From positions 175,463 through 239,462 of the forward strand of contig CAYGDX010000001.1 of the NCBI GenBank assembly GCA_964348825.1: DNA of 64,000 nt, read 5' to 3'. The position numbers and the translations under genes were made by a program. The DNA is from an uncultured Gammaproteobacteria bacterium. GTDB lineage: Bacteria; Patescibacteriota; Patescibacteriia; Veblenbacterales; UBA10138. The number at the start of each line of letters is the position of its first letter. Positions within the stretch are counted from its first letter, which is position 1. The notes beneath the pieces are model-generated. The model was given only the letters and a program-made list of their open reading frames with translations. It did no database searches and had not been told where the DNA came from. Of this stretch, positions 17,717-19,753 are shown in pieces.

Positions 17717-19753
17717 ATGTCAAAAGATAAAGAAGTCAAAAAGAAGGGCGCTTCTTATAACGCCGAACAAATTACCGTGCTCGAAGGGCTTGAGCCAGTG
17801 CGCAAACGCCCTGGTATGTATATTGGTAATACTGCCAAAGAAGGTTTGCATCATTTGATTTGGGAAGTAGTTGACAACTCAATTGATGAAGCAATGGCTG
17901 GTCATGCTAAAAATGTCATTATTACATTACTGCCCAATAATCGCGTGAAAGTGGAAGATGACGGTCGTGGTATTCCAGTGGATATTCATAAGCAAACCAA
18001 AGTGTCGGCACTTGAAACTGTGCTGACTGTGCTTCATGCTGGCGGTAAATTTGGCGGCGAAGGTTATAAAGTTTCCGGTGGTTTGCATGGCGTGGGTGTT
18101 TCAGTGGTTAATGCACTTTCCACTTGGTTACGCGCTGAAGTAAAAAGAGATGGCAAATTATGGGCACAAGAATACAAGCGTGGTAAACCACAAGGCAAAG
18201 TAAAAGCTGATGGTTCCGCGCGTGGTACTGGCACCACGATTACTTTTGAACCCGATCCAGAAATTTTTACCGTGCTTGATTTTGATTGGCAATATATTTT
18301 GGATCACTTGCGCCAACAGGCCTATTTAACTAAAGGTGTAACTTTAGATATTCGTGACCAAAGAACTAAACCACATCAAAGTTATATTTTTTATTTTGAA
18401 GGTGGTGTGGCGAGTTACGTGCGGCACTTAAATCATTGGGCCGAGGCCAAACACGATCGGGTATTTTATGTATCAAAAGAAGTAGATGGTATTCAAGTAG
18501 AAATTGCTTTACAATACATTGAAGAATTTAAAGAAACTACTTATACTTTTGCCAATAATATTTTTACAACTGAAGGTGGTATGCATTTGGTTGGCTTTAA
18601 AACTGCTTTAACTCGTACTTTAAATAGTTATGCGCGCGGTAAAAATTATTTGAAAGAAAAAGATGAAAATTTAACCGGTGAAGATACACGCGAAGGTTTA
18701 ACCGCCATTGTTTCTATAAAATTAAAAGATCCGCAATTTGAAGGTCAAACTAAAGCGAAATTAGGTAATGCTGAAGTAAAACCGATTGTGGATGCAGTTA
18801 CTGGTGAGGCGCTGGCTATGTTCTTGGAAGAAAATCCACGCGACGGCGAAGCAATTATTAGTAAGTGTTTACTTGCTTCACGAGCGCGGCTTGCGGCTCG
18901 TGCCGCGCGTGAAACTGTACTTCGTAAAGGTGCACTAGATGGTTTTGCCTTACCCGGCAAATTAGCTGATTGCCAAAGTAAAGATGCTTCCGAAAGTGAA
19001 CTATTTTTAGTAGAGGGTGATTCGGCCGGAGGTTCAGCTAAACAAGGTCGCGATCGAAGGTTCCAAGCGATTCTCCCGCTTCGTGGTAAAATTTTAAATG
19101 TAGAACGAGCGCGACTTGATAAAATGTTGGCTAACAACGAAATCAAATCATTGATTATTGCCATGGGTACAAATATTGGTGAGCAATTTACGATTGAAGA
19201 TTTGCGTTATAATCGGATTATTATTATGACTGATGCCGATGTGGATGGCGCGCACATTCGTACCCTACTTCTTACTTTATTTTATCGACATTTCCGTAGT
19301 TTGGTAGATAGCGGTCATATTTATATTGCGCAACCACCGCTTTATCGTGTGCAAAAAGGTAAGGAAATAAATTATGCTTATTCCGATGATGAATTAGAAA
19401 AGTTGAAAAAAACAATGATAAATCCGAAATCCGAAATCCGAAATCCGAAATCCGAAAAAATTAAAAAAACAGAAGAAGTGGTGGCGTCAAATGACGGTGA
19501 TGATGGAGTTGCCACTGAAGTGATTGCAGCCGGTGGTTTATCTATTCAACGTTACAAAGGTTTGGGTGAAATGAATCCGCAACAATTATGGGATACCACA
19601 ATGGATCCGGCGGCGCGTATGCTTCGCCAAGTAACAATTGATGATGCGGCTAAAGCCGATGAAATTTTTGATATATTAATGGGCGCAGAAGTTGGTCCGC
19701 GTAAACGGTTTATTCATACTCACGCGAAGAGTGTAAAAAATCTAGACATTTAA
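17717..19753 (+). CDS. gyrB: DNA gyrase subunit B
   Basis: GHKL ATPase (…[18 protein letters not shown]…[14 protein letters not shown]), TOPRIM ([19 protein letters not shown]…[14 protein letters not shown]) and the C-terminal tail ([15 protein letters not shown]). An in-frame tandem-heptamer insertion lies at 19421..19457. Confidence 0.97.
19421..19457 (+). repeat. Tandem heptamer (aatccga)x5 inside the gyrB reading frame
   Basis: aatccgaaatccgaaatccgaaatccgaaatccgaaa, translated as [13 protein letters not shown]. The same word is the building block of intergenic family B (for example 50805..50830, 62195..62215). Confidence 0.85.

Follow-up and report, generated by a model that had tools for sequence, protein, structure and literature searches.

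Can a microsatellite whose unit is not a multiple of three persist inside an essential gene, and how does it change while it is there? This question is raised by gyrB in a 64,000-nt window of Patescibacteria DNA (GenBank assembly GCA_964348825.1, contig CAYGDX010000001.1, positions 175,463 to 239,462 of the forward strand; coordinates below are those of the window), where a tandem array of the heptanucleotide AAATCCG is read through in frame. In our view the array is likely to be an ordinary coding variable number tandem repeat (VNTR) of the slippage type, nearly neutral and without demonstrated function, housed in a permissive loop of GyrB.

A perfect heptanucleotide tract in gyrB

The gyrB open reading frame (ORF; 17717..19753, + strand) encodes 678 residues with the Pfam domains HATPase_c (42-181), DNA_gyraseB (230-399), Toprim (428-539) and DNA_gyraseB_C (PF00986, 607-666), and its homologues are all GyrB proteins of Patescibacteria, such as Veblenbacteria and Kerfeldbacteria. 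Direct reading of the sequence at 19420..19457 (+) gives (AAATCCG)x5.4 with no mismatch. Tandem Repeats Finder (TRF) describes the same 38 nt with period 7, 5.4 copies, 100% matches, no indels and a score of 76, the highest among the 103 TRF rows of the window, and our own scan of periods 4-12 found it to be the longest perfect tandem repeat present. Codon 569 begins at 19421, and the tract is translated in frame as GyrB residues 569-580. The initial annotation, which had described five in-frame copies of a heptamer at this point, was right about both the array and its reading. By our own arithmetic from the lag-7 identity of the coding DNA in the window (0.265), 31 consecutive lag-7 matches would be expected by chance ~1e-13 times anywhere in the 64 kb. 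With its head-to-tail 7-nt units, present in at least three copies and at high identity, the tract is a heptanucleotide simple sequence repeat (SSR) or VNTR; the kind of repeat is known, and this is a new and well-documented instance of it.

What allows such a word to be read through? AAATCCG is free of stop codons in every phase on both strands, and a run of it encodes the polar seven-residue period NPKSEIR. Of the 53 arrays of period 7 or 8 in the window, only 14 lack a stop codon when read forward. Few intergenic words of this genome could survive within an ORF, and AAATCCG and AAATTCG belong to them. Four of the seven codons of the period are minor ones within their own families (TCC 9%, ATC 10%, CGA 14%, CCG 20%), which points to an origin at the level of the DNA and not to selection on the protein. 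The RNA at the tract is unstructured, with a minimum free energy of -2.3 kcal/mol (z = +2.7) that is weaker than in all 200 shuffles; unlike the intergenic copies of the word, then, the tract does not form a hairpin arm. Direct reading also reveals homopolymer runs on either side: an A7 run at 19406..19412 (+), 7 nt upstream of the array, and A6 and A7 runs after it at 19455-19460 and 19463-19469 (+). Such runs are themselves prone to slippage, and in principle a shift of 7 nt could be compensated there.

A three-unit length variant in a sister lineage

The closest protein to the window GyrB among 5.8 billion is P0001, which is 99% identical and, at 671 residues, seven residues shorter. Its DNA (L001, GCA_964360795.1) comes from a sister lineage in Hainich groundwater and carries (AAATCCG)x2.4, exactly 21 nt fewer, as a clean gap; no substitution separates it from the window between 27 nt before the tract and 122 nt after it. 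The 2.4-copy allele recurs in L084 (ENA ERZ1292621), from Hainich well H52. Comparison with the gyrB of relatives, a check proposed along with the first description of the array, thus yields 5.4 copies against 2.4 between identical flanks. L001 and L084 are 99.96% identical and hence belong to the same population, and the variation in copy number between close relatives with conserved flanks is seen in one independent comparison. The left flank plus two units has no match in the JGI metagenome contigs, which therefore hold no further alleles of this lineage. A scan of genome contigs for a conspecific genome found none, the best match being only 80% identical, and there is accordingly no close outgroup for the ancestral state.

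Might mis-assembly of the repeat have produced the number of copies seen, or the three-unit difference between the alleles? Short-read graph assemblers do break at this site, and two Logan contigs start inside the array: L243 (positions 1-30, run ERR3094292) with 30 nt of perfect repeat, and L244 (positions 1-27, run ERR3094302) with 27 nt. The Logan graph presumably uses k = 31, a value at which a 38-nt tract makes a cycle, its first and last internal 31-mers being identical; contig starts of this kind are then to be expected from a tract of at least 38 nt, and such tracts would fragment gyrB in graph assemblies. Exact-protein look-ups of the window GyrB and PheT gave no match, and the full-length GyrB is hidden from such look-ups because the Logan contigs break inside the array. 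Against mis-assembly, a 38-nt tract should lie below the typical short-read length, each allele keeps the frame, two separately made assemblies show the 2.4-copy form, and the long form stands in a 469-kb contig and is joined by the 27-30 nt of perfect repeat at contig ends from the two further runs. We consider an artefact exceedingly improbable.

The reading frame admits only steps of three units

What would other changes in copy number do to the protein? We simulated alleles from -3 to +3 units. Gain or loss of one or two units truncates GyrB to 577-606 residues and removes PF00986, and gain or loss of three gives a full-length GyrB. The simulation bears out the proposal of the initial annotation that only three-unit (21 bp) changes are tolerated, and so does the sole natural variant, which differs by exactly three units. 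All the assemblies that span the tract (window, L001 and L084) keep it in frame; the two Logan contigs begin within it and bear no information on the frame.

The initial annotation had further called the tract a built-in contingency-type locus, that is, a phase-variable locus at which GyrB would be turned off and on again, or altered in form, by reversible frame shifts as a bet-hedging strategy. In host-adapted bacteria, contingency loci include tetra- and pentanucleotide tracts in surface and restriction-modification genes of Haemophilus and Neisseria (cf. PMC12721329). The gyrB array is like them in being a tract of non-triplet units inside an ORF, where slippage shifts the frame, and it is moreover perfect and variable in length. 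It is unlike them in other respects: gyrB is essential and an OFF state not viable, there are five units, only in-frame alleles are known, and there is no link to surface variation. Gyrase is generally known to be essential, and the presumed lethality of the truncations rests on this. Every out-of-frame state loses the PF00986 tail with the QRYKGLGEM motif, no second GyrB or ParE is seen in the window, and five units are generally regarded as short for a high-rate switch. Similar arrays also occur in PrmC, GatB, QueA and valyl-tRNA synthetase (ValRS), which are not plausible switch genes. A point in favour could come from L084, where a GAA codon at position 2391, 13 nt after the array, reads TAA and is followed by GTG GTG, and gyrB is called as two proteins of 579 and 90 residues. 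If real, this stop would mean a GyrB that is split in its linker, and can be split there; it is most likely a sequencing error, being one of only two differences from L001, both G->T, in a contig of 4x coverage. We therefore did not retain the contingency designation, and hold a phase-variable gyrB to be very improbable.

The tract lies in a hypervariable linker

Where in GyrB does the array fall? Residues 569-580 lie in the gap between the Pfam matches to Toprim (428-539) and GyrB_C (607-666), in a hypervariable 'TOPRIM hook / Greek-key' linker that Pfam and AlphaFold2 together place at codons 540-606 (19334..19534, +). Aligned against all PDB sequences, the C-terminal half of the window GyrB falls into two blocks, 422-562 matching Escherichia coli 413-554 and 605-678 matching E. 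coli 731-804. The 42 residues between them (563-604), to which no solved GyrB aligns, take the position of E. coli 555-730, a 170-residue insert. The alignment to Staphylococcus aureus core constructs that lack the Greek-key domain ends at window residue 541, and the tract lies inside the missing stretch. An AlphaFold2 model built from 117 sequences (mean predicted local distance difference test, pLDDT, 79; an earlier run with 17 sequences was poor, at 60.7) has strands at 543-554, a helix at 557-568, a coil of 32 residues at 571-602 with pLDDT 25-33, and strands at 603-612. Among 116 Patescibacteria GyrBs the linker from PPLY to QRYKGLGEM measures 49-99 residues (median 67) and is rich in Lys, Glu and Ala, with no conserved sequence. 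No NPKSE repeat or motif occurs in the linkers of these 116 relatives, including those at 70-84% identity, and none has a period-7 peptide repeat; only short repeats of 3-5 residues made of K, A, G and E are found. The tract is thus predicted to sit in a flexible, disordered linker that tolerates insertions. The expectation of a flexible linker ahead of the C-terminal tail, voiced when the array was first noted, is borne out by the Pfam gap, the PDB alignment and the low-confidence coil alike.

Other gyrases carry extra sequence at the same place in the fold. The E. coli insert, which experiments delimit as Thr565-Arg731, projects from the TOPRIM hook at its tip, and deletion of this buttress cuts activity ~25-fold (PMC2995079), and in S. 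aureus a small Greek-key domain can be deleted from GyrB core constructs (PMC4686662). Window residues 563-604 likewise form additional sequence at the hook tip, a site that evidently accepts it. The likeness goes no further than position: in E. coli, ~170 residues fold into a module of three subdomains with a demonstrated role, whereas the window has 12 repeat-encoded residues, predicted to be disordered, in a 42-residue linker of low complexity whose coil (571-602) is predicted with pLDDT below 50.

Could the array nevertheless be adaptive, its seven-residue steps tuning the length of the hook linker and with it the TOPRIM-GyrA geometry or the supercoiling set-point across environments? The variation does come in steps of seven residues, at the site where E. 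coli has its functional buttress, and with 5.4 copies the linker has 67 residues, restoring the family median, while with 2.4 copies it has 60 and is among the five shortest of the 116. Yet the segment is predicted to be disordered, the sequence and length of the linker drift freely among relatives, the codons are minor ones, and just two alleles are known, both as sequence. We find a tuning role doubtful. The linker of these candidate phyla radiation (CPR) gyrases is a free-evolving site, which matters where gyrB serves to build phylogenies or to mark strains: the tract breaks graph assemblies, and 21-nt alleles could act as strain tags. A separate observation on the GyrB family is that P0109, a Patescibacteria GyrB of 1126 residues, contains intein and HNH Pfam domains (PF14890, PF13392) and is encoded by an intein-containing gyrB.

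Turnover of the tract and a model for its persistence

How recent is the change, and in which direction did it go? Over the whole gene the window and L001 differ at 131 of 2037 nt (~6%), 106 of them third codon positions, and the differences are unevenly spread. The last one upstream of the tract is at 19393. Up to that point 127 of 1677 nt are mismatched (7.6%), but between 19394 and 19753 only 4 of 360 (1.1%); at third positions the divergence drops from 18.4% to 2.5% (binomial P = 7e-8). The stretch of low divergence covers ~0.8 kb (19394..20195, +; ~1-2% divergence), with its left edge at most 27 nt upstream of the array, and ends before a gene for a 1970-residue protein. Judged from the pattern of substitutions, it is probably a recent recombination tract with an edge at or next to the microsatellite. 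The 21-nt change lies inside it and is therefore recent as well. One change in length took place while the adjacent 360 nt gained 4 substitutions; the tract changed its length faster than ~90 neighbouring sites changed a base, which shows that it is a mutational hot spot. A slip from 5.4 to 2.4 copies is possible in one step, since 17 nt of register remain, and the gain of three units on a 17-nt tract is not. From this geometry and from the lengths of the linkers we infer a deletion, from 5.4 to 2.4 copies, in the Hainich lineage.

Based on these observations, we propose the following model. A heptanucleotide microsatellite would have become established in the disordered tip loop of the TOPRIM hook / Greek-key region, between the Toprim fold and the C-terminal tail, where the stop-free AAATCCG can be read through and where the polar NPKSEIR period would suit a disordered linker rich in Lys and Glu. 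Replication slippage, or unequal recombination within the tract, would alter its copy number. Changes other than multiples of three units would truncate GyrB ahead of the C-terminal domain and be removed by selection, leaving steps of three units (21 nt, 7 residues) as the only ones to survive; the step seen in the sister lineage would most simply be one deletion that took the array from 5.4 copies to 2.4. The tract itself may be a by-product of a strong, heptamer-biased generation of repeats in this genome and across Patescibacteria, a tendency that would fill intergenic spacers and also leave arrays in permissive loops of other housekeeping proteins. If this is right, the locus is a natural demonstration of a non-triplet microsatellite that persists in an essential gene while selection passes only three-unit steps.

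Several points weigh against this reading. The polymorphism consists of two lineages and one event, as far as the sequences tell, L001 and L084 being one population. The alleles are known from assemblies only, and minor out-of-frame alleles may exist. A perfect tract in a gene that has diverged by ~6% implies recent turnover or recent exchange. Neutrality is an assumption, and it has to be set beside the fact that the 5.4-copy linker has the median length of the family and the 2.4-copy linker is near the minimum. Slippage can neither lead from 2.4 to 5.4 copies in one step nor allow growth by 7 nt at a time without passing through lethal frames, and the origin of the tract is thus not explained by slippage alone. 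Import of several units at once, or compensated shifts in the adjacent A6/A7 runs, are possible routes to five units. Finally, the word of the tract is the commonest intergenic word here, and its dimer is absent from 83 other Patescibacteria gyrB loci, which hints at seeding from elsewhere.

The same word in intergenic DNA

How widespread is the word in the window? Allowing at most 2 mismatches, AAATCCGAAATCCG has 14 matches against 0.84 expected, a number reached in 0 of 100 shuffles. The ten matches outside gyrB (293, 328, 3492, 48666, 49656, 50803, 56535, 58620, 62182 and 63614) include none in an ORF of at least 100 residues, in keeping with the initial annotation, according to which the word builds intergenic spacers. 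TRF and the word search delimit arrays at 3488..3523 (+; AAATCCG/AAATTCG, a few nt past the atpG stop), 50803..50828 (+; AAATCCG, 5 nt past the stop of ORF 49679..50797), 62182..62213 (+; AAATCCT/AAATCCG) and 63596..63628 (-; the same word, as CGGATTT/AGGATTT on the plus strand). At 293..341, to which no strand is assigned, an AAATTCG/AAATACG array is followed by a complementary CGGATTT array and a T run, forming an imperfect hairpin (-12.8 kcal/mol, z = -1.5). The intergenic DNA as a whole has identity peaks at lags 7, 8 and 14 without counterpart in coding DNA. Its spacers consist mostly of tandem words of 7-8 nt followed by complementary words and so form long imperfect palindromes (820-957, 5164-5243, 14113-14199, 17626-17707, 26620-26737 and 57376-57475). 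In sense and antisense folding most of them have more structure than their shuffles, and stability is in general, though not in every case, greater on the sense strand; a role for the hairpins as terminators or insulators is plausible.

Between lineages that are ~93% identical in coding DNA, no alignment of orthologous spacers is possible (window 3485-3655 and L085 3393-3606; window 2455-2557 and L085 2241-2443), yet they retain the architecture of array plus complement, built from different words. Some segments of the sister spacers find their match elsewhere in the window: L085 2405-2450 corresponds to window 43854-43899 (91%) and L001 12535-12681 to window 56535-56674 (85%).

A second in-frame array pointed out by the initial annotation, in atpG (F1 gamma), is also real: (CTACACC)x3.3, perfect, at 3186..3208 (+), read as TTPYTLHPHPS in a hypervariable loop. 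It folds no better than shuffles, and CTACACC has no intergenic counterpart in the window. The sister-lineage AtpG is near-identical elsewhere and has a wholly different loop of 33 residues, encoded in the Hainich atpG (L085 3030-3130) by AGTCAGA/AGTCAAGA words followed by their complement, in frame, with an RNA hairpin of -30.8 kcal/mol (z = -3.6). The 15-mer AGTCAAGAAGTCAGA of this loop recurs in the window in a helicase gene (7738-7752), within an in-frame array of AGTCAGAA/AGTCAAGA with period 8/16 (7720..7756, +; UvrD/PDDEXK helicase ORF 7148..10174) that is conserved in L001.

Was the gyrB tract then copied from an intergenic AAATCCG array, by ectopic recombination, template switching or as a mobile repeat module, and afterwards trimmed by slippage? 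Such a history concerns the origin of the tract and is compatible with a neutral VNTR as the description of its present behaviour. In its favour, the word is that of the most frequent intergenic family, and its dimer is absent from the other gyrB loci. Intergenic modules do relocate between lineages, as the 85% and 91% matches indicate, while the orthologous spacers have become unalignable; the sister atpG loop holds an intergenic-type, in-frame array with its complementary hairpin arm; reaching 5.4 copies in frame needs a gain of several units; and the boundary of the recombination tract lies close by. On the other side, the gyrB tract has no flanking module sequence, no target duplication and no complementary arm, the CTACACC array of atpG shows that local birth clearly occurs, and (AAATCCG)n stands in many unrelated metagenomic contexts, which would fit a word that is simply prone to expansion. 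We regard import as a possible but rather unlikely account of the origin.

In protein-coding genes of Rickettsia, palindromic elements (RPEs), reportedly described by Ogata and colleagues in 2000, are inserted in frame; they are mobile, of ~100-150 bp and conserved in sequence. The gyrB tract resembles them in that repeat DNA of an intergenic type is translated within a conserved gene at a tolerant surface loop. It differs in its build, a tandem array of 7-nt units that has neither a complementary arm nor element boundaries. In place of a palindromic element with defined ends and many copies, we find an unstructured RNA (z = +2.7), no complementary arm nearby, and nothing shared with the other loci except the 7-nt word. 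The atpG hairpin of the sister lineage is a closer analogue of the RPEs than is the gyrB tract.

Heptamer arrays across Patescibacteria and metagenomes

Is the gyrB array an isolated case? We searched 1.46 Mb of gyrB neighbourhoods from ~80 Patescibacteria genomes for perfect arrays with at least 14 lag matches and periods of 2-15. Period 7 was the most frequent (23 arrays), followed by period 14 (12) and period 8 (7), with 0-4 arrays for each other period; together with the intergenic lag-7 peak, this amounts to a lineage-wide excess of heptamers. Fifteen of the 23 heptamer arrays lie within Pfam-identified genes, and the suggestion of the initial annotation that the process is not confined to non-coding DNA therefore holds beyond the window. 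In PrmC, arrays made of three different words occupy the same loop, before the DIGTGSGC motif, in three genomes. Other coding heptamer arrays lie in the GatB inter-domain linker, QueA, FemAB, Wzy_C and NYN, and an octamer array lies in MiaA; where checked (PrmC and GatB), coding arrays fall in variable loops. In-frame heptamer arrays in housekeeping genes are recurrent, and gyrB is one instance.

The word itself is also found much further afield. More than 120 JGI metagenome contigs (L086-L165 among them), with GC contents of 32-70%, contain (AAATCCG)x3 or a longer array, and all 89 arrays that we read have 3.0-4.9 copies. The array often stands in frame in conserved genes, among them amidase/GatA, class-III aminotransferase, ATP-dependent DNA ligase, P-type ATPase and ValRS, or forms inverted pairs. 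We looked for a common mobile element around the 89 arrays and rejected it, the flanks being unrelated except in a subgroup (L096, L097, L133 and L141), where the array is the loop of a conserved inverted repeat. In IMG/VR, (AAATCCG)x3 is present in 25 contigs (L206-L230), against 0, 9 and 3 for three permutations of the same composition.

These arrays have precedents. An excess of heptanucleotides among the long SSRs of prokaryotes, with polymerase slippage as the proposed cause, was reported by Mrazek, Guo and Shah (2007), as related in PMC4692102 and PMC4679880; the same sources name cyanobacterial STRR heptamers, GGGAATC-type repeats of Xanthomonas and Nostoc, and TAACTGA repeats of Beggiatoaceae, and hold that coding repeats mostly have units in multiples of three. 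The arrays described here share with the known ones the perfect or near-perfect tandem heptamers, the preference for period 7, the mostly intergenic location, often as inverted pairs, the variability of length and sequence between close relatives, and slippage as the proposed cause. The gyrB tract differs from them in lying inside an essential housekeeping ORF and being read through in frame. In the literature that we searched, we found no description of heptamer repeats in Patescibacteria/CPR.

We offer tentatively the broader reading that a word-biased process making heptamer arrays is active in Patescibacteria, and perhaps in many bacteria and phages. Its vocabulary would include AAATCCG/T, TAATGTTC and AGTCARA, written into spacers as hairpins of array plus complement and, where the words are stop-free, into permissive loops of essential proteins as insertions with a seven-residue period. 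The spacer hairpins would then turn over completely between lineages that are ~93% identical in coding DNA. If this were true, the gyrB tract would be a live example whose length changed by three units beside a recombination boundary, and non-triplet microsatellites would contribute significantly to the evolution of loops and linkers in reduced genomes. The wider pattern of arrays in loops of PrmC, GatB, QueA and AtpG, together with intergenic hairpins of the same words that are replaced wholesale, may outweigh the single locus in importance; it suggests a mutational process that shapes both the spacers and the protein loops of minimal genomes and of which we found no account for this phylum in the literature that we searched.

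Other features of the window

The initial annotation had also listed a hairpin insert in pheT at 16777..16808. The sequence is present there, but the hairpin is not supported: the fold (-16.3 kcal/mol, z = -0.74) is equalled by 48 of 200 shuffles. The pheT of the sister lineage has a 21-nt in-frame insert of its own, GCATGCCGTGCCTACCGGCAG (L001 7450-7470, read as AVPTGRQ), that resembles a perfect 22-nt palindrome, GCCTGCCTACCGGTAGGCAGGC, in a spacer of the window (53641-53662). Between pheT and gyrB, L001 has two extra ORFs (9202-9963; 112 and 139 residues, with no Pfam match) where the window has a spacer of 157 nt.

A GC-rich hairpin element (TTGTCATTCCCGCG..CGGGAATC..) occurs at 6490-6572, 62140-62170 and 63640-63672, one pair of copies lying within ORF 6202..7011, and seems to be a REP-like family, separate from the heptamer arrays. 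Immediately downstream of the gyrB neighbourhood, the ORF of 1970 residues (20372-26284) carries a C-terminal Pkinase domain according to a Logan gene call; its identity to the counterpart in the sister lineage is only 84%, with many small indels.

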